A stretch of DNA of 63,500 nucleotides, counting the filler, from Hausera hauseri (taxonomy: Eukaryota), in the NCBI GenBank assembly GCA_046269625.1. It is 13 parts of 13 records of this genome, joined end to end, with 100 filler letters (N's around TTAATTAATTAA, not from the genome) between each part and the next. Parts side by side here need not be neighbours in the genome. Positions count along the whole stretch, not along the records: positions 12,897 to 19,371 come from JBJURY010096320.1; positions 19,472 to 23,790 come from JBJURY010637775.1; positions 23,891 to 28,667 come from JBJURY010439360.1; positions 28,768 to 33,981 come from JBJURY010305832.1; positions 34,082 to 38,976 come from JBJURY010400257.1; positions 39,077 to 45,532 come from JBJURY010099320.1; 7 more parts are not named here. One strand, written 5' to 3'. Each line of letters begins with the position of its first letter. The stretch's first letter is position 1. The notes below the pieces were generated by a model. The model was not told the origin of the DNA and made no database searches. It saw only the letters and a list, made by a program, of their open reading frames with translations. Below are positions 11,476 through 45,632 of the stretch, in pieces. Both the position numbers and the translations under genes were made by a program.

Positions 11476-11541
11476 CCTATGGGTTTGATTGTTTATGAAT
11501 TCTTATTTTCGAATTCATGCGAATGATTTTTAAATTCGTGC

Positions 11542-11701: not shown

Positions 11702-12169
11702 ATAATTTTTAAAATTAAAAATCAGTGACTAATCTAAATTCGACTAAGTCGATTCACGAACCACACACACAAAACTCAAATTTGGTGCGCAAGAACTTCA
11801 TGTTGCAAAATAGAACTCTTGTGCACATTTCCCGAAAGCCGTATATACAATTCGTGAACCGACCCCGCAAAATAAGTGATTGAACAAAGTAAAATGAGTA
11901 AAATAATTTGTATTTTTAAAATAATTTATATTTTTTGGTGGTTGCAATTGTAAAGCAAAGAAAAAGGTTCACAAGTAATTTACAATTAACAGCATAATAA
12001 AAACGCCCATCATAGAGGCTCGACAATACATATACAAGAAAATTACAAGAAAATAAAAGTATGTTTCAAGGGGTCAATAATGTTTCACTGTGTTATCGGT
12101 CGATCAAAATATCTGTCAATAATGTTTCAATATCTGGTCAATAATGTTTCCAGGGGTTGCCAATCAATC

Positions 12170-12796
12170 CTAACATTTCTCCACCTTTTGAAAAAGAATC
12201 CGGTCCTCCGGATCACTCTGGGTACTGACATCGATAAAACTGAGATTTCTGGGTTTGATTGTCAAAGTCGCATCATTCACTGGGTTCATCCAATGGCATA
12301 ATCGCTGGGTACGGTTGTCATATGTATAGCAGAAATGATAATAGACTGATGGTTGTCTGCAGTATGGACATGAAATACCGTTCTGAAAAGTCATTTGGAG
12401 AGCGTCCTCTGGGTCAATCGATTTGAGAGATTGGGATCGGAGTTTGTTGAAACAAGTTGCACATAGTTTGTGATTACATTGAAATTGAACTACTGTTATT
12501 CTTTCAGTGAGACATATAGTACATTAGTATGTAGGAAACTGGTCATAGTAGTGAGATTGTAATGTTGCCCATAGATCAGGAGGGGCTAGATCAGGTATAA
12601 GATCGATTGGGCATTTGCTGTAGACAGGAAACCAATCTTCTTGCAAAGATATTGGTAATGGTGGGCTATAAGAAATAGTTGGTGTGGGTATTATTGTAGG
12701 TACAGGTACTGGCAATTCGGGTAATGGTCTAGTAATTTGTTCTGGATGATAACGTGGGTGTGGTATTGAAGATGGTTGTCGTAGGAGAGTCATAAC
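12170..12796 (-). pseudogene. Pro-rich protein with C3HC4 RING finger, one in-frame TAA, 5'-truncated by the gap
   Basis: ORFs 12524-12793 and 12170-12394 are in the same frame. The intervening sequence reads *CTICLTERITVVQFQCNHKLCATCF…GISCPYCRQ. Confidence 0.75.
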
Positions 12797-12972
12797 NNNN
12801 NNNNNNNNNNNNNNNNNNNNNNNNNNNNNNNNNNNNNNNNTTAATTAATTAANNNNNNNNNNNNNNNNNNNNNNNNNNNNNNNNNNNNNNNNNNNNCTGC
12901 GCTGTCGTCGAGTAGAGCCTTTATGGTGTTTATATGTAAATTGTGAAAAATAAAAAGGGAATAGAAAGGAGA

Positions 12973-13028
12973 TGTAGTGCCGGGGAAGGGTTGGACCGCA
13001 CCAGTGGCGGACACACTCTGGCACTACT
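12973..13028. mobile_element. Short LTR-like remnant of the TGTAGTG…CACTACA gypsy family
   Basis: GC-rich 56 bp bounded by TGTAGTGCC and GGCACTAC inverted ends. Same terminal motif as the LTRs at 18079 and 35680. Confidence 0.5.
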
Positions 13029-13722
13029 TTTTTGTGTTAAATATAGCGAATTTGGAAACTTGCTCTAAATGAACAGTGATGCTCTTAAAAGGGACTGGAG
13101 TGGAAATGCCATTTATAAACTCTTTAATCCACTTAGACATCGGAATAATAAGAGGCCGTGGTACGTCAGATTTGTGTTCGTGTCGTCCATTTGTCGACAG
13201 TGATGGAAATTGCAGTTGAGAAATAGCAACAGCACGTAGTTGGCCATCCTTAAATGGTTTACTTCTTACTTTAAGAACAGTCAATACTGTACTCTCATCA
13301 CCAGTGTTGATTAAAAAATTTAAATTATCTGGATAATCGAAGAAAGTGAATTTTCTATGACCCAAATATATCTCCAAAAATTGTACCAAATCTTCCCCTG
13401 TCGTATTTTTAATAATTTTTGTTATTTCTACGCAGTAATGTCGATTATGTGGTGATGATTTTATAAACGGAACGATATATTGGGACGGTATGCTTCCATA
13501 TTCATCGGGTACGTTAAAGATATCAGAATCGGATACGGACTTTGTGATGAAACTGACACTTTTAACCAACCTAGAATTCGAATATGAAGCTTCGGATATT
13601 CTATTCTTAGGTACAAATTGCATGTAGACGTAATCACCTGGACGCTTTACTTGATCCTGTTCAATTCTTATTCCATTTTTAGGTTGTGTGGATTGCTTTA
13701 AAATTTTCAAAAATCGTTTCAA
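13024..13722 (-). CDS. Unidentified 232-aa ORF fragment (possibly RRM-like), probably a captured host gene piece
   Basis: Open frame with no ATG start, co-oriented with neighbouring gene fragments. Weak RRM-like pattern (YCVEITKIIKNTTGEDLVQFLE). Confidence 0.3.
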   Translation of the reverse strand: MKRFLKILKQSTQPKNGIRIEQDQVKRPGDYVYMQFVPKNRISEASYSNSRLVKSVSFITKSVSDSDIFNVPDEYGSIPSQYIVPFIKSSPHNRHYCVEITKIIKNTTGEDLVQFLEIYLGHRKFTFFDYPDNLNFLINTGDESTVLTVLKVRSKPFKDGQLRAVAISQLQFPSLSTNGRHEHKSDVPRPLIIPMSKWIKEFINGISTPVPFKSITVHLEQVSKFAIFNTKK

Positions 13723-14328
13723 ACGTAATTAGCGACAATAGTAATGTTAAATTAACAAAGGTACTTACATTCGTTGAGGCTGGTTCCAACCAAGCAGGCC
13801 TTTCGGTATAATTATGATTTTGACCCACAGTTAATGCTGGTTTCATTTTTTATCAGACCGATTGTCACTGATGGAAAAGGGTGCCTTTGAAAAAGACGAG
13901 TTCTTTTCAGTACCATTTTATCTGATGACAGTTAATCGCGAATTTAATATCCTATTGATATCTTCGCAAAAGGTTTCTCCCTCTTTATCATCATTCAATA
14001 ACACCCTATACGAATCCCATTTACGATCTTCGACTTCCCTTTTAAATGTTTTAGACATCTTTAGAAACTTTTCCAGCCATGCGGTCTGTCGAGCATTATC
14101 AAGATCGCAGTAAACTGCAAGATTCCGTGTAACATATAACAAGACCTCAACATGTTAGTTAAGGCGTTTAGTGGCCAATAAAAATATTCTCATCAATACT
14201 AATTCGTTGAAATTAATGGAAAAATTCTTGGACAATTCCAGAACCGATATATTCGGTCGGCGATTTTGTCGAGGAATAATATTCGATGGAAGCATATCGC
14301 GAGATACATTATCGGGAATCGGTTTCAG

Positions 14329-16437
14329 TTCAGCGACTGCTAACTTCTGTTTTTGTGGTGCAACAGGTTTTGAAACATAATCGTATTTATCAAGAGCTCT
14401 AATCCATTTACACAATCCCTCACACGCTGTACTATCGTTTCGAAATATTTTAGGATCAAAATACGGATTTGGAATGTAGTTATCGCGCAAACATTTCATA
14501 TATTGTGGATTAATTTTGTTAATATTGTAATATTTCAGTCTTTCCAAAAATTTGATATTGCTAAGAATTTTTACTGAAAGTGGGCAAAAATCTACGATCA
14601 CTTTCCCAGGGGATAGGTCAGGCTTTCCATCTGGTTTTTTACCTAACATCATACAGGCTGCTTCTAAGACAAATTTGATAACGCTTGGTGGATTCTTCAT
14701 AGTTCGCACTAATGTTGTGTCATTTAGTTTAAGAGTATTTAAAGAAGCTAATGCATCGTTTAAAATTGGGAGTGCTTCTGCTAAATCAGCTTCGCATTCA
14801 TCTTTAATGACGTGGCTTACAGATTCTTTTTCATTTGCTACTGCCTGATCAGCAACCAACAATTCCCGTTTGACTTCTACCTCTACTGCATCTTGTTCAA
14901 CCTTTTCTAAAAATCGATCTGTTTGTCCTGATGTTTCAATTAGTTGAGGTTGTAAAGCTTTTAAATTCATTTCTCAGTGTGAGTAATTCATTCCGTTTAA
15001 CATTAAGTAGTTTCTTGCAAATTTTAATTAACTCCAGATATGACGTTGGAGTTACGTAATTATGCCTTCTTAAGGTACTAAGAAATTTCTTGGACAATAG
15101 TCGAACACTTTCATAATAAAATCTACATAGCGATAATTGCATCTCTCGTATTGTCATTCATTTCAATATCTTCCAAAAATTTATTGGCAGCCATTTCTAG
15201 TGCATCTTGGGGCCAAACTAGGAAACGTATTCAGTCGGTTTCTTAATGCGTCTCCGATAATACTCATTGCCAATACAATGTGTAGATTTTGTTTAACTCG
15301 TTCTGTAAAGTAGTTATAAAATGCCATTGGCGTTGAATCAATTTTTCGACCTTCCATTCTTGCGGTACTTTGAATTTTCTCCAAAAGTTCTGTCTTCTCA
15401 TTGGCTGCATATAAATTTGGAACATCCCCGTGTTTAGAAGCACTGATATATCCTCGATGAATGACTGCTGTTCGACTAGGTTGTCAGAAAAGAGGAATGT
15501 GATTGGCTTTGCATCATATCCAGCCTTTGTTAAAAGCTTTTCTAATTTATCACGCCATTCGTAATGGCCATAATTCAGAGTTATTTTTATCACAGAGTTC
15601 ATATTCCGCCATCGTGTTGCCATTTTCGACGCACTCTGCCTTTCACTAAGAATCAAATGACCGAGAATTTTATCAATATTTGTCTTAAAACAATCGGCAG
15701 ATGTTGATTTGACAATGTCGAAAAATTTTGTTCGGTCTTCATCCATTGTTAATCTATCGTAGAATACTCGGTGTACCTCATGGACCCAAAGTCTCATTAA
15801 TTTGTCTGTGTTGGTCATATGTGTACTGGGGATCAATAAAACGCCTTTAATAACTCTGGCGAAGTCTCGAAGAATAAAAACGTAGAGATTTAGCTGGTGG
15901 TGGTAAAAAGTTCAAAATGGTTTCTTTGTAAACAGTCATTGTTGTAGTAAACAATATCTTTCCAAGTCTACAAGATGCAGAATCAAATCCATGTTCAAAA
16001 CGCCAATCGACAAAAACGGTAAATATGCGAGTCATTGTATCATCCGAAAATTCGTTTATACACAGAATATTGAAGTGCCGTACCATGCGATAACTTATGT
16101 CATTTCAACCGCAACCCGGTAAACCCATTGCATCCATGAGTAAAGAATCAACAAGCATCAATTTACTAGTATCTTTCTTATCATACCAACGACCAAGATT
16201 AATCCACTGTCTTAATAACTGGATAAGAGATGGAGCTCCATATTTTTCTTTTGCGGGCATACTGAGGTCATCAAGGAAAACCACGCAACGTTTTTTAGGA
16301 GGTGGACCATAAACGCCTTTGCGTCGCCTGTCTAGTTTAGACATGATTATATCCTGAGTCTGCTGATGCTCTGCCAGAAAAATTTATGTTATGTGCCAAA
16401 TATCTGTCCTTTGGCAAGTGAACAATATAATTATTGT
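14329..16437 (-). pseudogene. Axonemal inner-arm dynein heavy chain fragment (DNAH3/7/12-like; AAA3-AAA4-stalk), intronless, frameshifted, internally deleted
   Basis: INFSGRASA…TQDIIMSKLDRRRKGVYGPP…FLDDLSMPAKEKYGA; RLWVHEVHRVFYDRL; NLHIVLAMS; RRHNYVTPTSYLELI; ECEADLAEALP…MKNPP; ACEGLCKWIRAL. Confidence 0.92.
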
Positions 16438-17330
16438 TCAAAATACAATACACCACAATTGACCATCAAGGCTGATTCGTGGAGTCAATTTCGATTTGTT
16501 CTCATAACGGATTTTCTTCGCTTGACGAGTTGCCAAATCAAAATAAAATATATCACTGCACCGTTGAAAACAATAAACCAAACCCAAATTGAATGACGTC
16601 TTTTTCACACCAGTTACCAACAAACCATTGGCAGTAGGATGACCAAAAACTGAACTGATATAATATCCAGAAAAAACAGTATTATTATCGATTATCTCAA
16701 CGGTTTCCTTCTAGATATTTGACATACAAATAACAAGATTTTCAACATAAGGTAATTGTTCACCAAATATCGTCTTGAATTTAGATTTCTCGTACGAAAT
16801 TCGATTCTTTACCGTCAGGTATTGTTTGGAAATGTAAAATGACTTCCGGCTTTTTCATTTCAGCAACGTAAACAAGTTGTTCATTTTCAGGCAACTAGTC
16901 AAAACTACCAAAATTGGATGTATATTTATAAATGGAGCCATGAGTATCAAAGTCGACCAGATTGAAGGATTTTATTAAACACTCCGATTTCAAGATAAAG
17001 ACAATATTCGTTTTAGAATCCTTTTTTTATTTCATCGGAACTGTTCTTTAACAGATAAATAGCTCGATAACCCGAATATTTTGATGGAACATCTCATACT
17101 TCATCATCTTGCAATATTGGAGGACTGCTGAATAGTAATTTTCCATCACTGTCTACGGTATAATTGATATATAATGTTCTTGATCTAGCCGACAAAAAAT
17201 CATTTAACGTCCACAGAGATGATATTTGATATGATCTTCCAAATTTCTGACACCAATGTCGTTTCCGCATTATAGACGCATAATTTAATTCCAAAGATGA
17301 TAAGAACAGATTTGATGATTTCTTTGATGA
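16438..17330 (-). pseudogene. APEH: Acylamino-acid-releasing enzyme N-terminal propeller fragment, intronless
   Basis: Reads KSFNLVDFDTHGSIY…FG; LVYVAEMKKP; FGEQL; FNLGLVYCFQRCSDIFYFDL…PRISLDG. These match recalled APEH motifs KSFNL…HGPVY…FG, LLYVAEKKRP, FRLGIRFCTNRRS and PRLSPD. Confidence 0.75.
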
Positions 17331-17871
17331 TGAACCCATGAATGGATTAGTTAAATCCAAATAAAGAAGAAGTCCACATTAGAATAATTCTTTATTTAAA
17401 CTTTTAAATTTCAAAATCCTTAATCAATTGCTTACATCAAACCATATCTTTCAGTCAAAATAACTATAAAATAAGTAAAAACAATTCACAAAACTCAACT
17501 CTATTAACACTAATGTTTTTCAAAAATAGGCATATTCAATAGTAAATGCAAAAATGACAATAATAATGAACAATGAGAACATCAATTTTATACAGGAATT
17601 AAATCACACCTGTCTGGCCAAGTTAAGCAAACGAGTGGCATGATCATCTTTTCATAGAATTTCTTTCTTGTATTGCAACATAAAATCCGCTGAATTTGTA
17701 TCCGCGACAGATTAGCCATTTCACCCCTTCACTCTTGACTCTGCTAATAATAGCAACATGTATCTCTGTCATAGCAGTGAAATCACTTCCATATGTGATT
17801 TTCAAATTTTCATTTTGTTCTGAACTATGGTCTTAACACCGTCTTGCCAAATTTGTAAAACACGGTTCGGA

Positions 17872-19371
17872 TGTTAGTAAACTGAGGAATTTTATTGTTG
17901 GGCCGATGAAAACAAATTGAAAATCTTGTTATTGCCGCTTCTTTCTTTCATTCTTTTGAAGTCTTGTACAACAACACGACAACGAAACAATTCAACCATT
18001 TTTTACGTGTCACACGGCGGGGAAATTCTCGTCACCGATCCGCTAACCCCTCCAGTGCAACTGTACTTCAGACACTACATCACCGCCGTGGCAAAATGAA
18101 GAATATAAAGAAAAAATAAATGTACCTATTCGGTTTTGGTCCGTGTTAGATGTTGGACTCCATCTATGAACTTCTCACTGCTCTAAGTACTAAATGTCAC
18201 TTGGCGTGACCTGTTAGATGTTACTGGTGCTTGCGGAGTTTTTTGAGGGAGAGATACTGTCGATTTTGTGGTGTTTTGGGAGAATACTTCATGAAGAGGT
18301 GAAAATGGAGAAGAAACTAAAAGAGGAAACGGATCACGCGAAGATGGCGAGACTGGGAATGGAAGCAAATCGTGCGATGAAGGTTAAGTGAGTGGTGGAT
18401 GTGCAGGCGATGACGGCAAAGTAGGTGTTGAAAGAGCAGTAGACGATGAAGGAAGTGAAGCAAACTGCTTGTGACGTAACAGCGATTACTGTGACGGATC
18501 AAAAACGTCAAGAAAATTAGATGATGGCTAAAGGGTAGAAAAGTTAGAGTTGGGATTTGAAACAATGCTGTTATCCTGGTCATCGTCAACGAAGAAAGCT
18601 GGCTTAAGATTAAAAATGTGTACATTTTGGGGTTTGTCCTTGCGTAAAATAGTAGCTGTATGCGAAGAAAGGTTGAGTAGTTTGTAAGTGTCAACGTATT
18701 GAGGCCGAAAACCAGAAGCTGACGGATCCTTTAGCCATACAAACTTGGCTAAATATAAGTCCTCTGGAATATAAGATTAGTCTTTGTTTATAAGACAACA
18801 AAAGGCGTTTGAGTTTGGGTTTGTGCCGCACGAATAACGTATCTGACGGACTTTCACAGAGATTGGAAAGCTCAAAGAGGGCACGAATTGGTGTTCCAAA
18901 GAGAGCCTCAGCTGGAGCACAACCTGTGGTGGTGGATGGCGTGTTGCGCCAACCAAGTAGGACAAGAGGAAGAATTGAGGTCCAGTTATGATTGTTGTTC
19001 GCCAGGATTTTTAAGGAAATCTTCATGGTGCGGTGAAATCTCTCCAGAAGACCATTTGCTTAAGGATGATACGGCGTCGTATGGAAATGGGTTATCCCCA
19101 AGTGCTTTACAAGAGATTTGAAAAGATCAGCTTCAAATTGCGGACCTTGGTCCGTTATAATTTGACGCGGTAAGCCAAAATGGCAGACGCATGTCTTGGT
19201 AAATTCATTTGCTACCGAGTCGATACTGGTTGACCGAAGTGGAACGGCTTCCGGCCAGCGAGAAGCGCGATCCATCATTAATAAGATATATTGATAGCCG
19301 TTATCGGATGTTAAAGGGCCGACAAGATCCAAATGAACAATGTCAAAAGGAGGTGTTCAAGGGAAGTGGTA
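17872..19371 (-). mobile_element. Ty3/gypsy 3' end: integrase core, Ser/Pro-rich tail and 3' LTR starting TGTAGTGTC at 18079
   Basis: DLVGPL…MDRASRWPEAVPL…TDQGPQFE…TTPYHP..NGLLERFHRT; LPLVLLGWRNTP. LTR start matches that at 35680. The far LTR boundary (~17872) is uncertain. Confidence 0.88.
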
Positions 19372-19471
19372 NNNNNNNNNNNNNNNNNNNNNNNNNNNNN
19401 NNNNNNNNNNNNNNNTTAATTAATTAANNNNNNNNNNNNNNNNNNNNNNNNNNNNNNNNNNNNNNNNNNNN

Positions 19472-19730
19472 AAAGCTCATCTTCACAGGATATTAGCGGC
19501 TCCAACTGCACAATGCACATGCCAAAACAGTCCCCAGGCACTGGAGCATGTTCTCCAGACATGTTTCATCCTCTTTAAGGACCCAAATATGTCCGGAACA
19601 AAACAGCATGGAAGAAAGTTGTGGGGCAGCCGCGAGGATCTCCTGCTGACGACCAGATTCATAGAGGCAACCCACTTTCTTGTCTAGACTCTGAGCATAA
19701 GAAACTGAACGAAGAAGAAGATGAGGAAGT
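19472..19730 (+). mobile_element. 3' end of a non-LTR retrotransposon (I/Nimb-like C-terminal zinc finger, GAA-rich tail)
   Basis: HLHRILAAPTAQCTCQNSPQALEHVLQTC…KLWGSREDLLLTTRFIEAT followed by GAAGAAGAAG. Confidence 0.55.
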
Positions 19731-21816
19731 ATTGTTATTATTATTTAATACGTTTCGTAAGGTAATATCAGTTAAGTTTGTAATGTCAAGATTGAACCAA
19801 GTCTTGTAGCTTGGGGCAACATTATTTTGTACTTCATCTTTCCCAGCTAGGACCTCGTAACAACCAATACCCCTCCGTTAAAGTGTCGTTGTTCTTATGA
19901 GCTGCTGGTTATCAGTGTAGATACATGTTGTGAGAAAGACTTGCCAACAGATTGACTTTACTTAGGAGGCAGAGTTATTTGTATGATCAAAGGCATGCTA
20001 CATATCGTGACATGGCATCGTTTATTTTGAAGATCTGAACTGAAAACACATATTATGTTTTATTGTATTGAATGTTACCTATATTGTCTTTTTTCGCATA
20101 TTCATTTTTTGTTCTCAAATCTAGAGCCTCAGCCTCGTGTATGATCATAGGAATCTGTTTTCAGCTTAACTTTTTTGAAGGAAATCGAAAGAAGACTGGC
20201 CATAGCCATGCAGAGGTTAATCAAGATGCCCAACATGGCATGGCAACTTGAAGTAAACCTTCTAAGCTCATTATTTCCCCCATGGTGACCTAAGGAGGTG
20301 AATCAAAAACAATTACACAAAAAGATTAAATGATCAGAAAGAAAGTGTTACAGAAATGTTCTCAGAATGTCATGGACAAAAGAGAAGCTAAATGCCTATC
20401 ACAAGACCTGAATGTCACAGATAAACAGTATCATGTCACAAACACTGTACTTTAGTCAGTTAAACACCTGGGAAAATCAAACAACAGTAATGGAAAGCAA
20501 GGTTCTTGACATTGGACACAAGACATTAAAGAAAAAGTGTCAATATGAAGCTGCAAGAGGCAGATGAGCTAGCAATAGTTTAGTCTTTGGTGGAGGCGAG
20601 GAGTACGGCTGTATCTGAAAGTATATGATAAGAAGAAGGTCATTCTGCAAACTAGTGTTAGTGTTACATGAAGTTGATAAGAAAACATCTGCTCACCTCT
20701 AGCCTAAAGTAATAACAACATCAGTCATTTACGATGCTAAGCCCTAACTTTAACACGTGTGTTACCCTCCAGCTTGCTCCTTATAGAGCATATAGTATAC
20801 AGTGGTATCAAATTAGAAATAATTAATGTAGGTCTGTGTCATTCACTGACAGGAATCACTCCCTTGTCCTCCTCTCAAGAGTTCTCTCCGTCCGTACAGT
20901 GATGCGGAAAAGGATATACTGCACGCAACAATAACAGGCTACCTCACTAACTTGACAATTTTGTTTTCTGGAGGATCGCTTAGTCACCGTGACAATACAA
21001 ACCGATGATTAGACTTAGACGATATCCTGGTGGTGCACTGCACATCCTGTTGTTGAGTATAAGTCTATGATATGATGGTCTACTCTGTATAAATAAATAG
21101 TACTAAAAGTGTCTACGAGGACGGGAAACTTTCGCCATTATAAGTGGAGTCACACACTTCGTAAAATGTATTCGTCTACATGATAACATATACTAATTCA
21201 TATCACAAACCTACAGCAGTAAGTTTAACTGTAGCAGTGCACCAAAGTTCAGAAGATAGCTAGCCGGAGATGGACTCGGGGTCAAAGGTCATGACGTAAT
21301 CCGGTCAATTTGTGCTGCCGGTTCACCCGATCAGCCCAATTGGGCCGTTCTGTTCTGGCTGTCAAAATGCCTCGAGATATTACGCCTTGTGGAAAGTCCC
21401 GAACGTCCATTTGACGCCTAAAGGCAGACGCATAGGGAAATGTGGAGTTAGTATCCACATTTTTCCTTGACACCGGCACATGATTGGGTTATGTTGTCAG
21501 CAGAGAATTTCTCCGGTACCCATTCTTGACACTGGGTGGACCCCTGGAGTCATTTCGGTCGAAAAAAAATCCACTGCTCACAGCTGGAACTGAATCCCCG
21601 ACCAGGAGATCGGCAGACACGCACACTAACAACTATGCCACCGCGGCTCCAGAAGTCCGAAAAATGAAAAGGGTTATTAAAGATGGCTGTTGGTGCCACG
21701 AAAAAGGCAAATTTGAGTGAGCGTTGATGCTTTCCAACAGTCACGGTGACATTCTACGAGGGTCGTAGTGCTGGTGTAGAGTTAAATAAGGCCTCCTAGA
21801 GAATCTCACACATCAA

Positions 21817-22060
21817 GGGGCTCAGTGGTCTCCAGGTAGCACGTCCGCCTCGAGTGGTAGAGGTCCAGGATTCAAATCCCAGTGGAATCACTTGGGATTT
21901 TTTCTCCCGAATCTTCTAATAAAATATACTCCTGATCTCCGGGTAGTGAGATCGGACGTCCGTGTACATTGTCGTGCACGTTAAAAATCTAGTGACAATT
22001 GAAAATCGAAAGAGTAGGCCTAGCGGCCGCTGTCCTAACAAAATTCTAGAAAAACCTACT
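21817..22060 (+). mobile_element. tRNA-derived SINE-like element
   Basis: GGGGCTCAGTGGTC…GGTAGC (A box region) and GGATTCAAATCCC (B box). No complete cloverleaf. Body contains GCACGTTAAAAATC. Confidence 0.55.
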
Positions 22061-22959
22061 CAATTTACAGGGTCCTCGCCAGTGCAATTGAGTAAGTGCA
22101 CTGATCCGAGATTCTTCAGAAATGAGAAGAATGGAGCATTTACGGATTTATACCCTACGACTAAAATCATACATTCTGCGGCGATGATTTCACACAGTCT
22201 CAAATGTACGATGTTAAATGATGAACAAGTGATCAATATGTGAAGCTGATTGGATTATGTCTAACCGAGCAGGACTACGTATTTTGTGTTGTGTATACGC
22301 TAGAAGCAAACATTTTTGTCGCCTCATAGGGTCTACTATAATGTGTTTTATGCCTCGTATCTAAGTAGGCCAAAATCTCCCCCACGTTTGTTTGTTTATT
22401 CAATATATCTACCATCTGGTCAAATGAAAACTTTACATTTCGGCAGAACATAATTTTAGCTAATATTTAGTGTATTGTTTGTATAACCTTTTGAGCAGCC
22501 AGCTTCATAATATATCGTCGAGTGCTTGTTAAAGCCAGCACAGTGCCACCATCAACACTGTCTGTTGTTTGCATTGAAAATCTACCCTCGCAAACACACA
22601 CGTAGATGCAAATGGAAATAAAGCATTGTGACATTTTGATACGATAGATTAAAAAAAAAAAAAACAACAAAAATTTTAAATAGTGGGGCCATTCTAAAAC
22701 AAAGGCGGAGGAGGGGGACCTTTTATTAACCGTTAAAATTTGTGTAGTCCTCAAACATGAGGCATTCCTCGTGTGTGAAAATCAAAAGCAGATCATTATC
22801 ATTGATATTAATAGAAGATAGCCAAAATTGAACCTTTTGGTACTCCTGAGGAAATATTTTAAGGTTCTGGCACTGTGTTCTCTTGCAGAACATACCACAT
22901 CCCGCCTTTAGTGAAAACACTGAATCAGCAGGATGATATTAGGATGAAAACTGTATTTC

Positions 22960-23340
22960 TGCAGTTTCAGAAACAGTAATATGTGATCAGTTTTATCAAC
23001 AGCCTTGCACATGTCAATTAGTAGTACTCCATTATTATTGTTATTGTTGGTATTTTAGTGCTACATTTCGGTTAACTTGATTAATAGATGATCGCAGAAG
23101 AAGAAGAAGGTTAACAATGATAGGCAGAAGTGTTTAGGGCGAAAACCAGATTAATTTTCACGTAGGAAACTGTAATTAGTAAGCTGCTACAGTACGCGTT
23201 TGTAGATATGGCGTTCAAGAGGTTTTGTAAGAATAAGAACAGAGAGATGGTCCTATATTTTTTCAGCAAGTTTTCAGTCTCCTCTTTTCAGTTTCGGTAT
23301 CACAAGTCACAATTTGAGACTGTCTGGACATTTTTTTAAT
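22960..23340 (-). mobile_element. Decayed non-LTR (CR1-like) reverse transcriptase fragment
   Basis: Remnants YRTISL (YRPISL), SGFRPKH and LIDMCKAVDKTDH (D.SKAFD..DH). Confidence 0.6.
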
Positions 23341-23710
23341 GAACAGACAAAGATTGTATATATATATACATACGTGAGTTGACTTGTTACCATCGACGCG
23401 ACCACTTTCAGTCTGTAGGACCATCTTCACTGCATGACGTTTTCTTAGGCAAATATTTAATTGAGAGAATATGTCTGTAATCGATTGTAGAGAAAATGTG
23501 GTGAAGGATGCTCCATTTAGGTACTGTATGACAAATTGTGTAATTAGTCAGCAGCAAGTCAGTTTTTGTCCGTGGAGGTGGAGACAGAGGAAAAGACGTG
23601 GGCAAAGGTATCGGCCATAAGAGTGGTAATTTTGACACTCATGAAGCGTTTTATCAATGAACTGATCTATGGCATCCCAGATTTCTGACGAATTTCTACC
23701 GTTTTGTATT

Positions 23711-23715
<5 letters not shown>

Positions 23716-23790
<75 letters not shown>
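23716..23790. repeat. (CT)n microsatellite at contig end
   Basis: Uninterrupted TC/CT run up to the gap. Confidence 0.97.
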
Positions 23791-23890
23791 NNNNNNNNNN
23801 NNNNNNNNNNNNNNNNNNNNNNNNNNNNNNNNNNTTAATTAATTAANNNNNNNNNNNNNNNNNNNNNNNNNNNNNNNNNNNNNNNNNNNN

Positions 23891-37038: not shown

Positions 37039-38060
37039 CAGTAGGACCCCGCTTAACGCGTAGGATACGTTCCATCAAAGTAGAGCGTAATGCAAAACAG
37101 CGCTAAATGAGGCTATCTTAACATGTAAATAATGGGGTTAGGGGAAGATGCATAGGAAATTGGTTATGTATTGAATTTAATAATTATGTTTTTTTTTAAT
37201 AAAAATTAAACTAAACATTTATTTCTTACAAAAATAAAAACAATATAAACGAATATACATATAAAAACAAATAAAATTATAAGTCAGTCAGATCATTCAG
37301 TCTATTCTGTGTTTCCAATTTTCTGCCTTTTTGTCAAGAAGGCATCTAATGTAGTTTGCGTTTTCCTTTTGCGTTCTGTTAGAAGTTGTTGATAAGTGGA
37401 TAAAGCATCTATAACACCCCGTCTTGCTTTTGAACTCCTGTCAAAATTTGGATCATTTTCAACAAATTGGTCCATAATTTCAGTTATAGTGGTCAAACTC
37501 CTTTTTACAAACGCCATCGAAAGTTCTTTTTGCTCTTCTTCGAAATCACTACTATCAATATTTTTGTTTTCTTCTTGCTCAGTTAATTCCTTGAGGTCAT
37601 CATTAGAAAGACTAGCTGATGTTTTTTAAACTATTTCTTTGACGTCTTCCACATTTACCTCATCTAAACCGCTTTGTTTCGCTAATTCCACTATTTCTTC
37701 CGCTATTTCATCCATATCGACAGAGTGTCCAATGTCTTCGCTCTTACTTAAATCTGGCCAAATGTTCTTCCATACTCCTTTCAAAGATCTTTCTGTTATC
37801 TCATTCCAAGAAAGGTTTATATTTGCTACAGCATTCATGATATTGTAGTTTTTCCAAAATTCTCTTATTGATTGCTTCTCTTCTCCGTCTGTTTTTTCAA
37901 ACATCTGCTTAAATGTTCGCCGCAAGTAATAAGCCTTAAAATTGGATACAACGCCTTGGTCCATTGATTGGATTAAGGTAGTTGTGTTAGGCGGCAAGAA
38001 AACCACTTCGACTGGAATGCATGTTGTTAAGTCTGATAAATTTTTTGGGTAGTAGTGCTC
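37039..38060 (-). mobile_element. Tigger/pogo transposon 3' part with TIR
   Basis: VVFLPPNTTTLIQSMDQGVVSNFKAYYLRRTF; C-terminal QTTLDAFL; TIR TA|CAGTAGGACCCCGCTTAACGCG at 37039. Confidence 0.88.
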
Positions 38061-39076
38061 TTTGTTCAAGTTTAACAGACGGGCAGAAGTGTTCAGTGAA
38101 CCAATCCTTGCAAGCATTTCTATATTGTTAATCGTCATAAAATTTTGTACTTGCATAACTAATTTTCATATCCTTTAAAACAACAAAATAACGATTTTAC
38201 CAATCTAGTTCATAGTGGAATGTAGAATTATATGTCAATGCAATGTAAGTCCTCCATATTTTGGAAGAAACTGAGTGAATTTAAAGCAGCATATTTATTT
38301 AATGAAATCTTATAAGGCTTTTTATGAAGTAGATAATCTAATTTTGGGAAGTTACATAAATTATCTTACAAAATATGACTGGAAATGGTATTTATTATTC
38401 CAATACTTGCTAAATATGTGCATTCCTATTACTCTATACATATAGTACTTTAAAATAATGAATTCGTGAAATTCTTGTCTCGCCATTCTTCAGATTTTCA
38501 TCTTCAGCACTGTGTGATTGTAGATACGAAATACTGATGACATTATATATGTGCATGAACATTTTAACGGTTGGAAATTGGTCAGGACAATGTTAGTTCC
38601 CTTATAATTAAAATTAAAAATAGTTTTGCTTATACATTAACATCCATCTTCATCAATTTTGAATAAGATTAGTGCGATATCTAAAATATAAGCAAAAAAT
38701 GAAGGACATCTCAAACGATGCCAACTCGTTTGTCATTAAAGTTGAGTTTAGTAAGAATACATCTCGCGACAAAATAACTGGCAAAAATATATTTAGTAGT
38801 GATGTTTTTTCCTGCATAAATAATAACGCAGATATAAAGCCATGATGTTACTACATTATCTACTGTCTGCGCTACAGTGTATGGAGGTCAAATGATATAT
38901 AAAAGAAACTACAGTAGGGTAAATTCATTTTCTCATGTTCAGTGGAGTGCAACAACCAAGAACGACTTCTCATACTNNNNNNNNNNNNNNNNNNNNNNNN
39001 NNNNNNNNNNNNNNNNNNNNTTAATTAATTAANNNNNNNNNNNNNNNNNNNNNNNNNNNNNNNNNNNNNNNNNNNN

Positions 39077-41594
39077 ACAGGAATCTGGTGGTATGCTTTG
39101 GCTAAATCGATTGTTGAATAAACTGTGGTAGAATTAAGCCGATGTAATAAATCTTTCATCAAGGGTAGTGGATACGCATCCATTATGGTCAAAGTATTAA
39201 GCTGGCGATAATTGCCGCATGGTCGGAAAGGTACATATTTCTTTGGACAATGCGGAGAGGCGAAGCCCATGGGGATTTAGATCTACGAACAATACCTGAT
39301 TTTTCGAGTTCGAAAAATTCCGCCTCTATTGCCTGCCTGCGACGAAGTGACAATGGACGAACCTTTTGTCGAATTGGTCTTTGGTGGCGTGTAATTATAT
39401 GATGGTAAATGTCGTTTACAGGAATGAAATTCCGATCTTTTTGAAGTATATGAGAACAAGAAGTATTAATGAATTGTTGTAAGCTTACGGGTAGTTGCTG
39501 GAATATTGTGAGTGACGATGAAACACGGCTGCTGGCAGTACTTGGTGTATGTTGATTGATTGCTGGTGACGAATCGAGTGGAGTTTAAAGTAGAATGGGC
39601 GAGTCCGGGACCTTATTGGAGTAAGTGTAGTGGTTCAATGATTTTACTAAAGATACCAGATCGTGAATGTCGACACTAAGCTGTGACTGACTATCGACGT
39701 TGTCCTTTCGAAGCTTACGATGTAAAACGTAATAGTTAAGAGTATTAGTATGAGACATAGATCGTTTAAAAATTGATTGCCTGCTTAGAGTTGGCTGTGT
39801 TGTCGTCGGGGTGCTGTCTATTCCTCTGATACAGTCTTCAGGTGTATTTGATTTTATGCATTGTTGGTTACAATCGACTAGCAAGTTATAGTGAGACAGG
39901 AAATCAGAGCCAAGTATTGCCGTCTGGACGTTAGCGACTGTAAACGTCCAATAAAATGTTAAAGAAAATTTTGACAGAGTAAAAGATAATTTACAAGTTC
40001 CTACAATATGAAGTGGTTGACCGGAGGCGGTGTATAAAGGTTTTGTTTTAAATAAAGAATGCTGAACCGGAAAAGAAAGTGGTAGTAGTGAAATCGTTGC
40101 ACCGGTATCGTCGAGAAAGTCTATCGATTGAATGTTAGAAGTGGAGATAGCAGCTTTCACTGTAAAGACTGCAAAATAAGTGTGTTGGCAAGAGGAATTA
40201 GGTAAGTTGCCTTTGCCAGAATCTGCCGAGAATACTGGCGGTGAAATCAGTTTTTTTTTGCATTGGTGAGTTGGGACGGTTAATGTTAGAGAAACTGGAA
40301 CGTCTATCAGTGTGTAGTTATTGCTAGTTTTATAGTTACAGCCTGAAATACAATTCGGAACATTAGATCGAAATTTTGCATGATAGATGCAAACTATTTT
40401 ACCTGAGTGTAGATTCGACGAATAATATCTACACCCTAAACAGCATTTATTTGCTTTGTTATTGAATTGGTTATGGTAATAACATATAAATGACCGCTTT
40501 GGGGACGGTGTAAGATTTCTGGAAGGAGAACGTGTTTGATGAGGCGAGGGGAATTTCGTCGATGTAAAGAAAGGTCATTCAGCTTATCATTGATGGTGTT
40601 GATTGTGCGTTGTAGTGCCGCATTTTCGGCGCGTAATTGGTTCAATTGGTGCTCGGTGGATGTATTTCGTTGATTGTCATCGGTCGTAGTAGCGGCTGAT
40701 ATGATGGGTTGTGATTGTATTTGTAAGACTTTGTGTGCTTTATCGGCCAATGCAGCTAGTTTATCAAAAGCTGTAGCATCCTCAACAACAGTAAGTAAAG
40801 CCATAATTTGAATGAGTAAAGCTTAAGGAAATATCGGCGAAGTAGATCCTGATTGTGTTCCTTGGTGACACCCAAGGTACAAAAGTGGGCCAACGAGGTG
40901 CGCAAGAAATCACTCGGTTTTTGTGTACCCATTGCGTTTTCATTAAAAAGCGTTGTATTATCTAGTCAAATGGTGGTTCTGTCAGTTTTAATACAACATT
41001 GAACAATGGCGTATAATGATCAGGGTGTTGAAAGAAGTCCAGTAAGTTATAAATTGAGGCCTTTATGGAATTCGGTAGAAGGTAGAGTAGATTATGGGCT
41101 TTTGTTAACAAGTCTGTAATGCCGTTGGATTGTAGCCAAAGTTGATGGAAGTGGAGTCAGTCCTACTAGAATTTTCATATTCTGTAAAATACTCAGAGCA
41201 ATGTGAGGGTGTAACTGTAGGGTTTTTGTGAGGAAAGCTAGTGTCGATTGTAGGTGGTGGATGGTTTCATTTTGGATTGTAGAGAATGGATTTGGGTTTT
41301 GTGGTAACCTTATCTGTGATGTCACTGGTTGGTGAAGAAATCATACTGCCGCGGATTCTAGGGTGAATGTGGATACAGAGGTAGTATTGTGAGGATGTGA
41401 TGTGTGGGAGGTCAATTAGAATGAAACCATTGTAAGTCAAATAGAAATCATTGAAGGCGGTGGCTTTATGAATGAGATCATATAATTGTAATGTGTCGAT
41501 ACGTTGTGTAATATGTGCCGTATGTATTAATTTATTATTTACAAAACGGTGGATGGGAAATGACGCTGGTAAACAACAAGCTGGGTAGTGTGGT
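39077..41594 (-). mobile_element. Ty3/gypsy element 5' part (gag, protease, start of RT), same family as 30730-33981
   Basis: ALLTVVEDATAFDKLAALADKAH (cf. ALITVVEDSTALEKLAELDDKAY); FLDDTGATISLLP; ILGSDFLSHY; FRPCGNYRQLN…YPLP…IDLAKAYHQIP. Confidence 0.92.
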
Positions 41595-41599
41595 ATTTC

Positions 41600-42360
41600 C
41601 ACACATTTTATCAGGTTGATTCTGAGTAAGTGATAACTTTGTGTATCTTTGAATGGAATAACGGTCGATTTCTTTTTAACAAAGAAGTATTTACCACTGT
41701 ACAGTGACTCGCGTAATGCATTTCAGGATTCCGTACCTGGTTTGTAGATCGGTGGGAAATATGCACCTATGGAATTAAATACTTTTGTCAATGCCTGCAA
41801 ATGGTATCTCTTTCCAGAATAGGTTGGAGGAAATATTGGGAAAAAAGCTAAAAGAAGAAGTGAAGAGAATTTTGGAAAATTACGTTGAGTTAGTTTTCCT
41901 CCGCCTAGGAATAAAAGCCCAATGGGCATACAATACGTCATATAGACATCGTGATGAAGCGTATCTGTATCTCGAATTATTGATCAAACGCTTCGAGACA
42001 TTCGTAACCGCGTCAAATTACCGGTGTCGGATGCAATCATGTACGCCGCTAGATGGAGGGTGGATAAAGCCGAATCATAAGATTATTGGCCAATATTCTG
42101 CAATAATTCACAATCGTTTTTGATGGATAATAATTTCTCAATGTGCGAAAGAATAGTAGCAAGACCATCCTCATTATCCGTGCCAGCATATCGCATGGCC
42201 ATTACAAAACTTGGCCCCACTAGCAACGGAAGGTAACTCTCATTGGCCGTCAGACTATACTTTTCAGCAAAATCCGTCGGTCAGACTTGTCGAAAGGAGT
42301 CGAGATGCCCTTCGGGCAGTTCGGAAAAGTTGTCTTTAAACGTGTATTCCAATCTTTCCT
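41600..42360 (-). pseudogene. ANAPC1: Anaphase-promoting complex subunit 1 fragment (PC-repeat/C-terminal region), intronless
   Basis: MAMRYAGTDN…AYMIASDTGNL…IGLLFLGGGK…LLAFFPIFP…RYHLQAL matches recalled APC1 motifs GFRFAGS, MAGSGNL, LGLLFLGGG and RYHLQAL. Confidence 0.85.
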
Positions 42361-43130
42361 AAAGTTCCGAGAGAGAAAGATGAAAGCGTATATAATATAA
42401 AACGCTTGTAATTAGTATGGCAAAATGTACAATATCGTTATGAAAACCTGTCTTAAAGTACCCCTCGGAACTGATTTCAACGGTAAATATATAGCGTTGG
42501 ATTCCGTTCATTTCAAAATTTTCAAGCAATTTAGCAAGGGTTTTGAGTTCGGAAGTATTGTCCTTAGTAACAACGGGTCGATAAAAAATCAGGTATTGAA
42601 GTTTGAGAAGCAATATATCCGAAATGTCGAATAGCGACCCTTTTCCATTATCAATGAGCCATGTAAGGATGACGTCTGTAGATAACGGTTTAACGCTTTT
42701 CTTTGACGGTGGTCTCTCAAATCTCGGCAATGAGTATTTATCTCGACAACTGCATGTGTTGTTTAAGTTACGTGGCCACCGTTTCTTATCCAGTAATTCG
42801 AAAAGTTCTGTACACGGATAATCGGTAATCGAATCAAGACTACGAACGGTAAAATCGGTCGGAAAATCCTCTTACACCAACGTTATATAATATGCAATAT
42901 TGTATCTGACAATCTGGCATGGTAGCATTTTAATGAAGGGTTATGGATAAATATAGGCAATCCTCTAAATGTAAACGATTTATCTTTCTGTTTGGTTAGT
43001 GTTGGTGTTTATGACAAGAAATATGTCAATGGATAGGTTATCAGCTGATAATTAGGTAATTTTCCAGTTATTAGAATTCAAGTGAAAAATTGAAAAATGC
43101 GTTTCTCTCGGAAAATCATTGTGTAATTGA
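42359..43130 (-). pseudogene. Unidentified gene fragment, weakly ABCA-transporter extracellular-domain-like
   Basis: CSCRDKYSLP…STDVIL…ISDILL…KTGFHNDIVH loosely resembles the ABCA ECD2 pattern. Weak. Confidence 0.25.
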
Positions 43131-43159
43131 CCGATTTGGTACTTGGATACACAAGAACA

Positions 43160-43640
43160 TGCATGTCCATCGTTATACGTTACCTGATAAACAAAACAAT
43201 GGACCTTTGACGCACACGGAGTACATGTCGTATAATTATTTTGCCAAATTCCCTGTGGTCCGGGATCACGACGGCCACAAAACTGGCAAATCACACAATT
43301 TTGACATTTCCAACTTCCTTTTGGTACTTCGTTTAGGGGTGGTTCCAAACAAAATGTATAATAACTAATGTCAGAATTGTCACACAACAGCAGGAGATTT
43401 TCCTCGGCAGCTTGACCACATCCTTCACAGACTGTACAGTCTAGACAACGCCAGCCTTTTTCAATGTTAACTTCCAACAGTTTGTTAAATGCAGCACAGT
43501 ATGAATGGTAACACTGACTACACTGAACACCACAAAACAACGGTGCATTGACACCGTACGACCTGCTGGAAACACGCATGTCTTTATCCAACGCAAAAGA
43601 ATTGTCGGCGCGACAAATAACAACGGTTGTAGGATGCTCG
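43160..43640 (-). pseudogene. KMT2C: KMT2C/D (MLL3/4, trr/lpt-type) tandem PHD-finger fragment
   Basis: QCSQCYHSYC…KGWRCLDCTVCEGCG…LLLCD..DISY.TFCL.PPL..VPKG.WKC..CV.C..CG…WQNNYT.C.PCAS. Several Zn ligands are lost. Confidence 0.88.
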
Positions 43641-43806
43641 TCTTTTTTTGCATTTTTACATTCCACCTTCAGAGTGCGGTAGAGATGGTCATCAATCCAT
43701 TGCATAAATTTATACGTTGAAGAATTACAATCCATTATCCAGAAATCACGAGTTCTGAACGTGGGGCACTGATAATTGCCGTTACTCGTGCTGGCTGCTG
43801 CTGTCA

Positions 43807-44452
43807 TATATTTATTTGGTCCAGTAGTTTGGAAAAAATTGAATGGCAAAAATTGAAATCCAGCCTTAGTCATTTCCAACTGATAAATCATACCATTGTA
43901 ACTTCTCACGGCACAGCCATTATCAATTGTTACGATTCCAGGAGTAGTGAAATTTCTATCATTACAAACCGAACATGTTTTGAGAATGAGAATGGTATTC
44001 GGTGTTGACAAACTCCATTCAACACCAACAAATACCGTTTGATCTGAATTAAGTGCAAATGGTTTATTCATTTTACTTTGAGAGTTGTTATCAGTGTAGA
44101 AATTCATGGTCAAATTTGTTGGACTTAAATTATAACTAGGACGAGGCAAATGAGAACCAAGTCGATCATTTTGTGTATTGTTGAAAGGGGTAACCGTGTG
44201 ACAGCTTACTTGGATTGCTTTCGACGGTACAAGACTCAAGCGATCCGTTACGTAGAAGCGATTTAACCAACAAGTATATTGTATATATGTACCCATATCT
44301 GTATAATTGGGGCTACGAATAAAATCAAGCACAATATAAACAGGGTACGTTGCATTACTTGATATAATTGCTTTTGAACTACATTCCGGACTAATTGATA
44401 CAAGACTTGAATTAATATATGGAACGGTATAAAGATGCCAATAAATACCCAT
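43807..44452 (-). pseudogene. Zona pellucida (ZP)-domain protein fragment, in frame with the PHD fragment in ORF 43052-44452
   Basis: LTMNFYTD…DQTVFVGVEW…LILKTC…IDNGC…FQFLPFNF is a typical ZP-C pattern. Confidence 0.7.
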
Positions 44453-45632
44453 CGATATATTTGTGAAAATAACGGTTGGCGAAGTTTCTTCAATTTTTTG
44501 CTATTCGCCGCATTTTATCCAAACCAGATAATTTGTACATCGATTGATCGGACTAGTTATTTGCAGTTTGTACCATTGCAAGAGAGTTTAGCCGATGAAT
44601 TGCTTTTAGGATAATCGTTTGGTACAATTAACTGTGGATTCTTTACGTTTCCGCACGTCAGTCCACAATAATATGTGGCGATCGATTTCGTTAACGAAGA
44701 ATCATTGTTTCAAAAATGGATGAAATATCTGTTATATATGTCGTCCAAATTATTTCCAATAACAACACAACTCATTGGCGATTCTTTAATAACTGATATT
44801 CATAGTAACTCAAGTTTTTTTTGGAATTTTAAATCCAATATTTGCACATTCTGAAGCTTAATTTGATTCTTTAAATAGATAGTCATCCAAATGTGTAAGC
44901 AATGTAAATTAATTTTAGTTTCAATATTTGATTGAATATTAGTTAAAATGTTACGTAAAAAACAACTGCGGGGTTCCCCAAAGACAATAACCGAACTCAC
45001 CAGTATGATTCTGTATACGGAAGTCCAGCGAATCGATGCTTTTAATACCAAAGAATCTGCTCTAAAATACTTCTGACACCAATTGTTGTTTGTGAGAAGT
45101 ACACGTGTATAGGTCGCTGGTACTTCCAAGTAAATAAAGAAATTTAAATGCTCAAAAATTTTAACCAAGTTTTGTTGGTGCATTGAAACGTAACTTATCA
45201 AACTTCTATGCACCAACAACGTATTGTCATTTTGTTGAAATATGGCAACTTTGTAATTCATTATCACCAACGACGAGCTACTTTGTCCACCGTTTCCCAA
45301 TGTACCATTGAAAAGACAAAACGAATTAGTCAGTTTGATTTTTATTTTAACCATTTAATAATTGAAATCACTTTTGCTCTCAGTTATCGTGTGTTTAAAA
45401 CAATTATGTTAGATAGCATAGAATCAAGCAATATATAGAGTTCGGCCTTTATCTAGGAACCTTAGGCAGTTGTTTCGTAAACTAATTTCCATGTTGTTAA
45501 CTAGCATTATTAAAGATAAGAAAAATTACATGNNNNNNNNNNNNNNNNNNNNNNNNNNNNNNNNNNNNNNNNNNNNTTAATTAATTAANNNNNNNNNNNN
45601 NNNNNNNNNNNNNNNNNNNNNNNNNNNNNNNN

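Follow-up and report, generated by a model that had tools for sequence, protein, structure and literature searches.

The window analysed here, a stretch of 63,500 nt of Hausera hauseri DNA (GCA_046269625.1), consists of 13 contigs with N spacers between them, and positions count along the whole window. In three of these contigs, C4 (12897..19371), C7 (28768..33981) and C9 (39077..45532), pieces of ten unrelated host genes lie decayed, end to end and co-oriented at the place where related gypsy elements have their LTR. C8 (34082..38976) carries a further related element. One public run, here called X1, was the source of contigs that were searched for C4 sequence. The features of the four contigs are as follows.

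C4, 18615..19371, minus: gypsy integrase of the upstream element, with stops and frameshifts (Pfam rve, E 8e-13; tblastx match to the C8 integrase)
C4, 18080..18614, minus: Ser/Pro-rich tail, 3' UTR and short polypurine tract (from sequence and the similar layout of C8; summed X1 depth 1719-6457)
C4, 18004..18079, minus: LTR start, TGTAGTG and about 70 GC-rich nt
C4, 17400..18003, minus: AT-rich segment, either subfamily U3 or a further mRNA piece
C4, 16462..16779, minus: APEH fragment, tool-aligned part (PDB 7px8, weak, E 0.011, the only match)
C4, 14329..16444, minus: fragment of the axonemal dynein heavy chain DNAH3, decayed and internally deleted
C4, 13819..14151, minus: CHD6-9/Kismet fragment (homology searches)
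C4, 13147..13831, minus: fragment of a quasi-RRM RNA-binding protein (homology searches and RRM-like features)
C4, 12973..13028, minus: LTR end, a 56-nt GC-rich unit ending in CACTACA, with its own terminal inverted repeat
C4, 12897..12972, minus: probable start of the pre-gag ORF of the downstream element (weak DNA match to the C7 pre-gag)
C7, 29285..29957, plus: talin head (F0-F2) fragment (homology searches)
C7, 30037..30387, plus: MPEG1/perforin-2 fragment, aligned part, which may extend to about 30600
C7, 30709..30830, plus: GC-rich hairpin island, probable LTR remnant (66% GC against a background of 36%)
C7, 30831..33981, plus: pre-gag domain, gag, protease, RT and RNase H, broken (RVT_1, E 9e-10; RT_RNaseH_2, E 2e-22)
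C8, 34082..35679, plus: integrase, tail, 3' UTR and purine tract of a related element (Integrase_H2C2, rve)
C8, 35680..35990, plus: LTR start TGTAGTG, about 130 GC-rich nt, then a foreign gag piece in sense, from another retrotransposon family
C9, 43820..44464, minus: ZP-domain protein fragment (atlas feature score 0.94; best named matches agree, 10/10)
C9, 43175..43651, minus: KMT2C/D PHD-finger fragment (E 2e-40; Pfam PHD)
C9, 42329..43177, minus: Drosha fragment (E 1e-15)
C9, 41621..42250, minus: APC1 fragment (E 2e-12)
C9, 39077..41560, minus: pre-gag domain, gag, protease and RT start, broken (weak RT match; pre-gag domain)

A gypsy order is supported by protease-RT-RNase H in C7 and C9 and by zinc-binding and core integrase in C4 and C8; RNase H and integrase never share a contig, and no contig holds a whole element. 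Domain searches confirmed the integrase of C4 and C8 and the RT and RNase H of C7, with only a weak RT match in C9. The single gypsy family of the initial annotation is better described as related families, as the integrases of C4 and C8 are 65% identical and the gag-pol regions of C7 and C9 65-69% identical. The integrase contigs (C4 and C8) are tied to the gag contigs only by a weak DNA match between the right end of C4 and the C7 pre-gag (p=0.007, one of ten pairwise tests), for which the protein match was not significant.

The chains run APEH-DNAH3-CHD6/9-quasi-RRM protein in C4, talin-MPEG1 in C7 and ZP-KMT2C/D-Drosha-APC1 in C9. Searches recovered DNAH3, APEH (weakly), talin, MPEG1, the KMT2C/D PHD fingers, APC1 and ZP at the places and on the strands initially annotated; two pieces of C4 that had been left as unknowns were identified as CHD6-9/Kismet and the quasi-RRM protein, and a questioned ABCA-like piece of C9 turned out to be Drosha. 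The ZP piece gave no homolog in a word search, and its identity comes from the atlas only. The APEH fragment probably begins near 17330, judging by its motifs; at APEH site 16651 eight X1 contigs differ, and one X1 contig skips 310 nt. No significant PDB match was obtained for 17400..18003 of C4 in the sense frames tried, nor any identification for 44500-45532 of C9 in the frames tried.

All ten identified fragments of C4, C7 and C9 lie on the element-sense strand, as had been proposed (chance p=0.001), and a Pfam scan of nine antisense frames of the chains gave no match. The pieces are internal coding stretches of 0.3-2.1 kb, a slightly wider range than the 0.5-2 kb first given, and neighbouring fragments abut within tens of bases. 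Internal deletion, at first ascribed to every fragment, was demonstrated for DNAH3, which differs in length from its homologs only by deletions (-5, -2, -258, -19 and -99 nt), and for MPEG1 relative to human MPEG1. The three gene-gene joins of C9 share one frame (chance 1 in 27), and an in-frame fusion of these pieces was set aside because the pattern is not repeated in C4 or C7.

Approximately 7.1 kb of fragment coding sequence was aligned to protein homologs, and intron-sized insertions were absent, where 8-10 introns would be expected even with exons as long as those of Macrostomum (mean 721-858 nt). The fragments thus look intronless, as annotated, when judged against protein homologs. No intron mark was seen in X1 among the joints and loose ends listed (15 of 22 joints and 6 of 422 loose ends), and the single long parent contig in X1 runs uninterrupted. 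Exon sizes and retrocopy data were absent from the passages of PMC11410931 and bioRxiv 2025.12.11.693146 that were available.

This absence of visible parent introns, and the fact that TGTAGTG...CACTACA amounts to a short terminal inverted repeat, would suit DNA-level capture from intron-poor genes, with a Helitron or Pack-TIR element as the agent. Such elements are marked by a hairpin-CTRR end, or a TIR with target duplication, and by genomic fragments on either strand, none of which was seen at the chains. The ten fragments are all sense, introns or intergenic DNA were not recognised, no target duplication or flanking repeat was found around the chains, and the inverted repeat coincides with the LTR start after the purine tract in two families. 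Ends of this kind bracketing the arrays had been named beforehand as an observation that would count against an RNA route; no Helitron-type end was found near a chain, and a hairpin-CTRR scan of eight contig strands gave one match, inside integrase. We therefore regard DNA-level capture as very improbable.

The chains could also have piled up from independent cDNA insertions, by break repair with cDNA or as LINE-made retrocopies, at a repeat locus with a strand bias, for instance a piRNA cluster, and later been trimmed by deletions, the LTR position then being incidental. The contigs are indeed repeat-rich and decayed, nested mariner and pogo-type pieces are present in C8, and in planarians the piRNA clusters show a strand bias, with sense genic sequence abundant in some of them (bioRxiv 2026.01.28.702291). 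Against this, no run of nine or more A and no poly(A) was found in any chain, target duplication and 3'-end anchoring are lacking, the fragments abut closely, and the chains start and stop at LTR coordinates in C4, C7 and C8, whereas in C9 the boundary is the point where pre-gag begins. The other contigs of the window showed no comparable chains in a Pfam control scan of 132 stop-free segments, which returned transposon domains, one RING finger and one low-complexity match; Pfam detects just three of the ten chain genes. An accumulation of this kind is improbable.

C4 was matched in one public run only, X1, at 0.39 of words, and no RNA run was among the matches listed. X1 contigs cover each of the 30 bins of C4, although no single listed piece extends across all of it. 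The window may have been assembled from X1 itself, in which case the support of X1 for C4 is not independent. Copies in X1 that are 83-95% identical share a gene-gene junction, an internal deletion and an LTR junction: record 1 (83%) runs across the CHD/RRM junction, the large dynein deletion recurs in record 3 (about 95%), and record 4 joins the 3' UTR to the 17400..18003 segment, with 44 differences in 418 nt. An intact dynein is also present in X1 as a 402-nt contig (depth 22.6), about 10% diverged from the C4 copy. Among 22 codons examined 17 changes were replacements and 5 silent, and the intact gene sides with the homologs in 15 of the 17 amino-acid differences; the C4 dynein piece is a dead copy of the intact gene that has decayed neutrally. 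Because diverged copies share junctions and the intact parent dynein is about 10% diverged, the chain is old, multi-copy genomic DNA. The short contigs, the single run matched at 0.39 of words and the want of a listed piece across the whole of C4 are what an assembly chimera or cDNA contamination might leave behind. The fragments, however, carry stops, frameshifts and roughly 10% neutral divergence, and separately assembled, diverged contigs bridge three kinds of junction, so that chimeric assembly, foreseen as an objection, is the least probable of the readings considered.

The order integrase-LTR-host chain-LTR remnant first described for C4 holds: its chain of 5.1 kb lies between the polypurine tract with TGTAGTG (18079) and CACTACA (12973), the reverse complement of TGTAGTG. 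TGTAGTG was taken as the LTR start because it follows the purine tract at an equivalent position in both C4 and C8 (p<0.004 for the region), two families 65% alike. The gag-side LTR remnant that had been described is clear in C4 and partial in C7, and no GC-rich remnant precedes gag-pol in C9. A TGG-started tRNA primer site was not found after the LTR end in C4 or C7, and the GC islands gave no tRNA and no Rfam match (Rfam gave none at E<=1 in 32.6 kb). In C8 the gag piece after the LTR start is 70% identical over 179 nt to gag of another contig, C13, and is possibly a fourth, short chain. In the window, every contig of this gypsy clade that shows an element end carries a chain there (three clear, one weak, n=4).

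Precisely where the LTR of C4 begins, X1 depth falls 21-fold, from 4914 down to 236, and it amounts to 236, 101 and 25 in the bins of 17400..18003. About 1700 would be expected past the LTR start if its first 76 nt were shared across the family, and since only 236 was observed the LTR interior appears not to be conserved across the family, allowing that LTR depth is possibly under-counted where short or GC-rich contigs were dropped.

These data bear on a closely related reading, in which complete mini-LTRs of about 55-120 nt exist and the chain makes up everything between the two LTRs of a non-autonomous LTR-chain-LTR unit (of the type of Bs1 or Tan et al.), in tandem with coding elements and sharing their LTRs, by the same enzyme and RNA route. 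The right unit of C4 forms a hairpin of its own, 56 nt long and with inverted ends, four element ends bear GC-rich islands of 55-130 nt, alignments of whole units score above full shuffles in three of ten pairs (p 0.002-0.014), and diverged copies share junctions as secondarily transposed retrocopies do (PMC5131818). Yet once the terminal 9 nt were fixed the interiors resembled each other no better than shuffled sequence did (p 0.15-0.31), the right unit has no purine tract before it, X1 depth shows no conserved 76-nt LTR, and the chain lacks the gag-side and integrase-side sequence that known LTR retrocopies keep inside. We consider mini-LTR units rather unlikely.

Our preferred reading, to which we give a probability of about 0.6, is that the chains, with two to four identified genes each, were made by the element reverse transcriptase jumping serially through co-packaged mRNAs. 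Host mRNAs would be packaged in the element particle, and minus-strand cDNA running off the 5' end of the element RNA would find little or no repeat for annealing, because the terminal repeat is, as we infer, very short or poorly conserved. The cDNA would then switch to sites inside mRNAs, with skips both within one mRNA and from one to another, and would land at last on the 3' end of element RNA, copying U3, purine tract and integrase. If the run-off product were normal strong-stop DNA, an element with a chain-laden LTR would result and C4 would represent the LTR common to two elements in tandem; with a full-length minus strand as the run-off, an element-chain-element dimer would arise directly. 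The chain would be carried along in later copies, decaying neutrally. No function of the chains is indicated. The serial template jumping proposed at the outset thus gains from the signs of RNA origin, the placement from LTR start to LTR end in C4 and the multi-copy status; the LTR remnant is patchy, and mini-LTR units fit equally.

LINE-made processed pseudogenes have a 3' poly(A), target duplication and 3' anchoring, all absent here. Strong-stop DNA of yeast Ty1 can prime on mRNA and yield element-mRNA-element products, and Ty1 chimeric cDNAs are usually poly(A)-anchored. Unlike these laboratory-selected chimeras, the fragments described here are natural and internal, and are fixed and amplified in an animal genome. 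They resemble the chimeric cDNAs and retrosequences of Ty1 in having multiple switches between element RNA and cellular mRNA, as described in parts of PMC5131818 and PMC5454406.

In LTR-mediated retroposition by template switching, as presented in the available part of Tan et al. 2016 (PMC5131818), the retrocopy is internal and flanked by discontinuous element sequence, and two-gene retrocopies make up 2/15 Drosophila cases. Partial processed host sequence joined to an LTR element, chimeras of at least two parents and re-amplification with shared switch points are common to both; here, by contrast, the chain lies downstream of integrase and purine tract and upstream of gag, at the LTR and beside gag-pol, with up to four identified genes. 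Maize Bs1, as described in the same part of that source, holds three captured genes inside an LTR element and likewise combines a multi-gene exonic chain with switch points common to its copies; it is one family with an internal chain and a maintained hybrid ORF, whereas several different, decayed chains are found here at the LTR. The traits shared with both are thus sense partial host CDS fused to the element, no poly(A) or own target duplication, and secondary copies with shared switch points, and the internal position between 5'- and 3'-side element sequence was not found, save under the mini-LTR reading. As far as these accounts go, multi-gene LTR retrocopies are already known, so that the premise of normally one gene per retrocopy was too strong; what is distinct is where the chains lie, at the LTR and outside gag-pol, and how often they seem to occur.

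Terminons, in the passages of PMC6431247 drawn on, also form co-oriented arrays with host genes between neighbouring retroelements, but they are Penelope-like, telomeric and furnished with hammerhead ribozymes, unlike the gypsy-type RT, RNase H and integrase and the null Rfam result here. Planarian Burro, described in the same passages, is a giant flatworm gypsy element with host-like domains; these are domesticated inside a long polyprotein, in contrast to dead mRNA pieces at the LTR. Searches of the openly accessible literature listed no account of flatworm elements with chains of several host mRNAs at the LTR position.

The pre-gag domains of C7 and C9 match each other (E 3e-5) and share a conserved HxHxRIRG[G/S]M end. 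The model (pLDDT 49) has a predicted strand-strand-helix-strand-strand-strand order, from which the domain is possibly ubiquitin-like, such domains being beta-grasp folds that end in RGG; Pfam, PDB sequence and fold searches gave no match. Relatives of gag were absent from 415 metagenome contig candidates and from 1574 protein database candidates (longer proteins only), and an integrase search of viral contigs gave no locus. A 17-nt junction pattern occurred at 118 metagenome loci, where tblastn gave no match to element proteins, and was taken as chance.

Possible, though doubtful, is a flatworm gypsy clade without conserved LTR interior or tRNA primer site, in which strand transfer would routinely proceed via host mRNAs and each lineage would retain gag-pol but assemble its LTR anew, out of a newly made chain of host transcripts. 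Such a clade would be a genome-wide sampler of the stem-cell or germline transcriptome, and a ubiquitin-like leader would free Gag from fused upstream sequence.

Gene capture by LTR elements has so far been known as a rare accident that replaces the inside of the element. If it were instead a routine outcome of strand transfer that loads the LTR of coding elements, it would represent a different failure mode of reverse transcription, and it raises the question of how gypsy priming proceeds without a visible tRNA site. The chains would then be a fossil record of the mRNAs that enter the particle. Hundreds of multi-gene pseudogene chains would have been seeded, which may confuse gene annotation, and they may feed small-RNA pathways against host genes or supply material for exon shuffling.

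Chains, or runs of host gene fragments at the LTR position of gypsy-type elements, were carried by C4 (12897–19371), C7 (28768–33981) and C9 (39077–45532), and C8 (34082–38976) belongs with them. The window consists of 13 contigs, 4–6.5 kb each, separated by N spacers. Frames were translated with X for stops, and ten host genes were identified:

C4, minus strand, after the integrase: APEH (E 0.011, the weakest of the ten identifications)
C4, minus strand, after the integrase: DNAH3
C4, minus strand, after the integrase: CHD6-9/Kismet
C4, minus strand, after the integrase: quasi-RRM protein
C7, plus strand, before gag: talin
C7, plus strand, before gag: MPEG1
C9, minus strand, before gag: ZP domain
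C9, minus strand, before gag: KMT2C/D PHD fingers
C9, minus strand, before gag: Drosha (by homology; initially annotated as ABCA-like)
C9, minus strand, before gag: APC1

The APEH assignment was additionally supported by motifs that we take to be its own. Among the dynein and CHD matches listed, the best were flatworm sequences (61–63%; Schistosoma, Mesocestoides and a tapeworm cluster) and all others stood at 55% or less, which makes a flatworm the probable host.

All ten fragments were sense to the element, as initially claimed (chance 0.001), and nine antisense frames of the chains gave no Pfam matches. Adjoining pieces were 0–180 nt apart. The fragments had been called intronless, and no intron-sized insertion relative to protein homologs was present across the ~7.1 kb aligned; the 832 DNAH3 homolog residues mapped showed only deletions. 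Mean exon length in Macrostomum is long (721–858 nt; PMC10468722), and 8–10 introns would be expected over the aligned spans if this length, which may not be the host's, applies. Neither poly(A), target duplication nor a Helitron end was found at the chains. Together with the strand bias and the internal coding pieces, this points to mRNAs reverse-transcribed by the element's own enzyme. Independent insertions at a strand-biased locus fit worse and are improbable, and DNA capture, also a worse fit, is very improbable. The ZP, KMT2, Drosha and APC1 pieces (41621–44500) all lie in a single reading frame, stop-free for 482 codons over ZP-KMT2-Drosha, an arrangement absent from the other chains.

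Integrase was confirmed in C4 and C8 (65% identity to each other) and RT and RNase H in C7, with C9 protease and RT weak (C7/C9 65–69%); these are related families, not the single gypsy family initially described. Both C4 and C8 have a short purine tract, then TGTAGTG, then a GC-rich stretch. The CACTACA end of C4 lies 5.1 kb beyond the TGTAGTG start and is preceded by a GC-rich hairpin of 56 nt that carries an inverted repeat at its own ends. The 76 nt past this LTR end resemble the start of the C7 pre-gag region (which precedes gag in C7 and C9) at the nucleotide level (p=0.007 in one of the ten pairwise comparisons made), with no significant match as protein. In C7 a GC-rich island of 120 nt separates MPEG1 from the pre-gag ORF; no such island occurs in C9, where APC1 lies within ~60 nt of the pre-gag ORF, and the LTR-end-like motif claimed there was not upheld. 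With ends fixed, the islands were no more similar than shuffles, and sequence inspection found no tRNA primer site after the LTR end. The main rival reading, in which the chain is the interior of a conventional non-autonomous unit flanked by two mini-LTRs (complete LTRs ~55–120 nt), is unlikely. On the opposite strand, 12945–12972 is a long purine run abutting the inverted end motif and mirroring the true purine tract, which may reflect codon content alone. In C8, a sense gag piece of another family (35814–35990, 70% to C13) begins 130 nt after the LTR start and is possibly a fourth, short chain. Next come a mariner in sense orientation, truncated at its 5' end, and a pogo-type insertion.

C4 was compared with a public sequencing run (X1), which shares 0.39 of its words and may itself be the window's source. 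At 80% likeness, 3411 X1 contigs matched, covering 30 of 30 bins. Summed depth was 1700–13400 over the integrase and 3' UTR, 236 and 101 in the two bins past the LTR start and 4–53 (mean 33) over the rest. The drop at the LTR start, to 236, was 21-fold; sharing of no more than the first 76 nt among copies would predict ~1700. Most copies having this 3' UTR therefore diverge right after the terminal motif; loss of short contigs could contribute to the drop.

Single X1 contigs had depths near 7–10 or 22–29, perhaps reflecting three haplotypes or a pool of animals. Those of depth 22–39 were without the window's dynein frameshifts, and 15 of 17 amino-acid differences in one 402-nt contig agreed with ten homologs (replacement to silent 17:5; p=0.002; the 22 codons comprise 23 listed sites, of which 21 belong to its 40 differences and 2 lie in the following contig). 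The window dynein is thus a dead copy, ~10% diverged, of an intact gene belonging to the same organism or a very closely related one. The low-depth contigs are further copies of the C4 chain. One (83%) spans the CHD/RRM junction, another (21 differences in ~460 nt) has the large dynein deletion in common with C4, a third joins the 3' UTR to the same downstream segment via a diverged 70-nt LTR start, and eight differ at one APEH site. Junctions are thereby crossed by individual contigs, none of the pieces listed extending over the whole C4 stretch; artefact fits worse and is the least probable reading. None of the X1 joints (15 of 22) or loose ends (6 of 422) that were listed marked a parent intron, though such introns may exist.

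The initial observation is real and larger than first reported, and the chains most likely arose as proposed with it, by a variant of a known process. Host mRNAs would be co-packaged with element RNA, and minus-strand DNA leaving the RNA 5' end would jump serially through them, perhaps at microhomology and assisted by a terminal repeat that is either very short or not conserved, before landing on an element 3' end (probability roughly 0.6). Serial jumping is favoured because the chain, past the purine tract and ahead of gag, sits where such DNA must jump. Misdirected strong-stop transfer would give a chain-laden LTR, C4 then being a tandem junction; full minus-strand run-off would give an element-chain-element dimer. 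X1 depth at the C4 right end (76 nt only) was 50–60 versus 4914 in the 3' UTR, which slightly favours unlike partners.

Tan et al. 2016 (PMC5131818) describe template-switch retrocopies that lie inside LTR elements, two genes having contributed in 2 of 15 cases. The paper cites maize Bs1, which combines three genes, and yeast Ty1, where multiple switches occur, and it notes secondary amplification. The present chains resemble these in partial sense sequence and switch points common to copies, but would count as internal only under the mini-LTR reading. Enzyme, ends and cargo all set Terminons and Burro (PMC6431247) apart from them. Searches of the open-access literature turned up no description of such chains at the LTR position.

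A Pfam scan served as control: 132 stop-free segments, each at least 55 aa long and drawn from C3, C5, C6, C10, C12 and portions of C1, C11 and C13, yielded transposon domains together with a single RING finger and a single low-complexity match; chain segments added as positives were recovered (4/4). The scan is shallow, since Pfam by itself picks up 3 of the 10 chain genes. The RING finger (C3, 12173–12523, minus strand) adjoins short tandem repeats and may be an exon of the host or an accessory gene belonging to a large element. C1 and C2 (472–8631) contain two related sets (65–67%) of long coiled-coil ORFs, not recognised by Pfam, in which a zinc knuckle and a weak UBX-like domain occur; they may represent the gag region of a giant element resembling Burro. 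C11 carries Polinton/Maverick-type DNA polymerase B remains (49862–54744) and a 900-nt inverted duplication (86% identity), and a stop-free ORF of 413 codons upstream of the C13 gag (62258–63499, minus strand) had no family match.

The small pre-gag domain (30831–31050, plus strand, C7; 41327–41560, minus strand, C9) terminates in HxHxRIRG[G/S]M in both contigs, recalling the end of ubiquitin; if a ubiquitin-like domain is real, host deubiquitinases could release Gag by cleavage. No function is indicated for the chains themselves, and it is a tentative, rather doubtful extension that this gypsy clade may routinely rebuild its LTR from host mRNAs.
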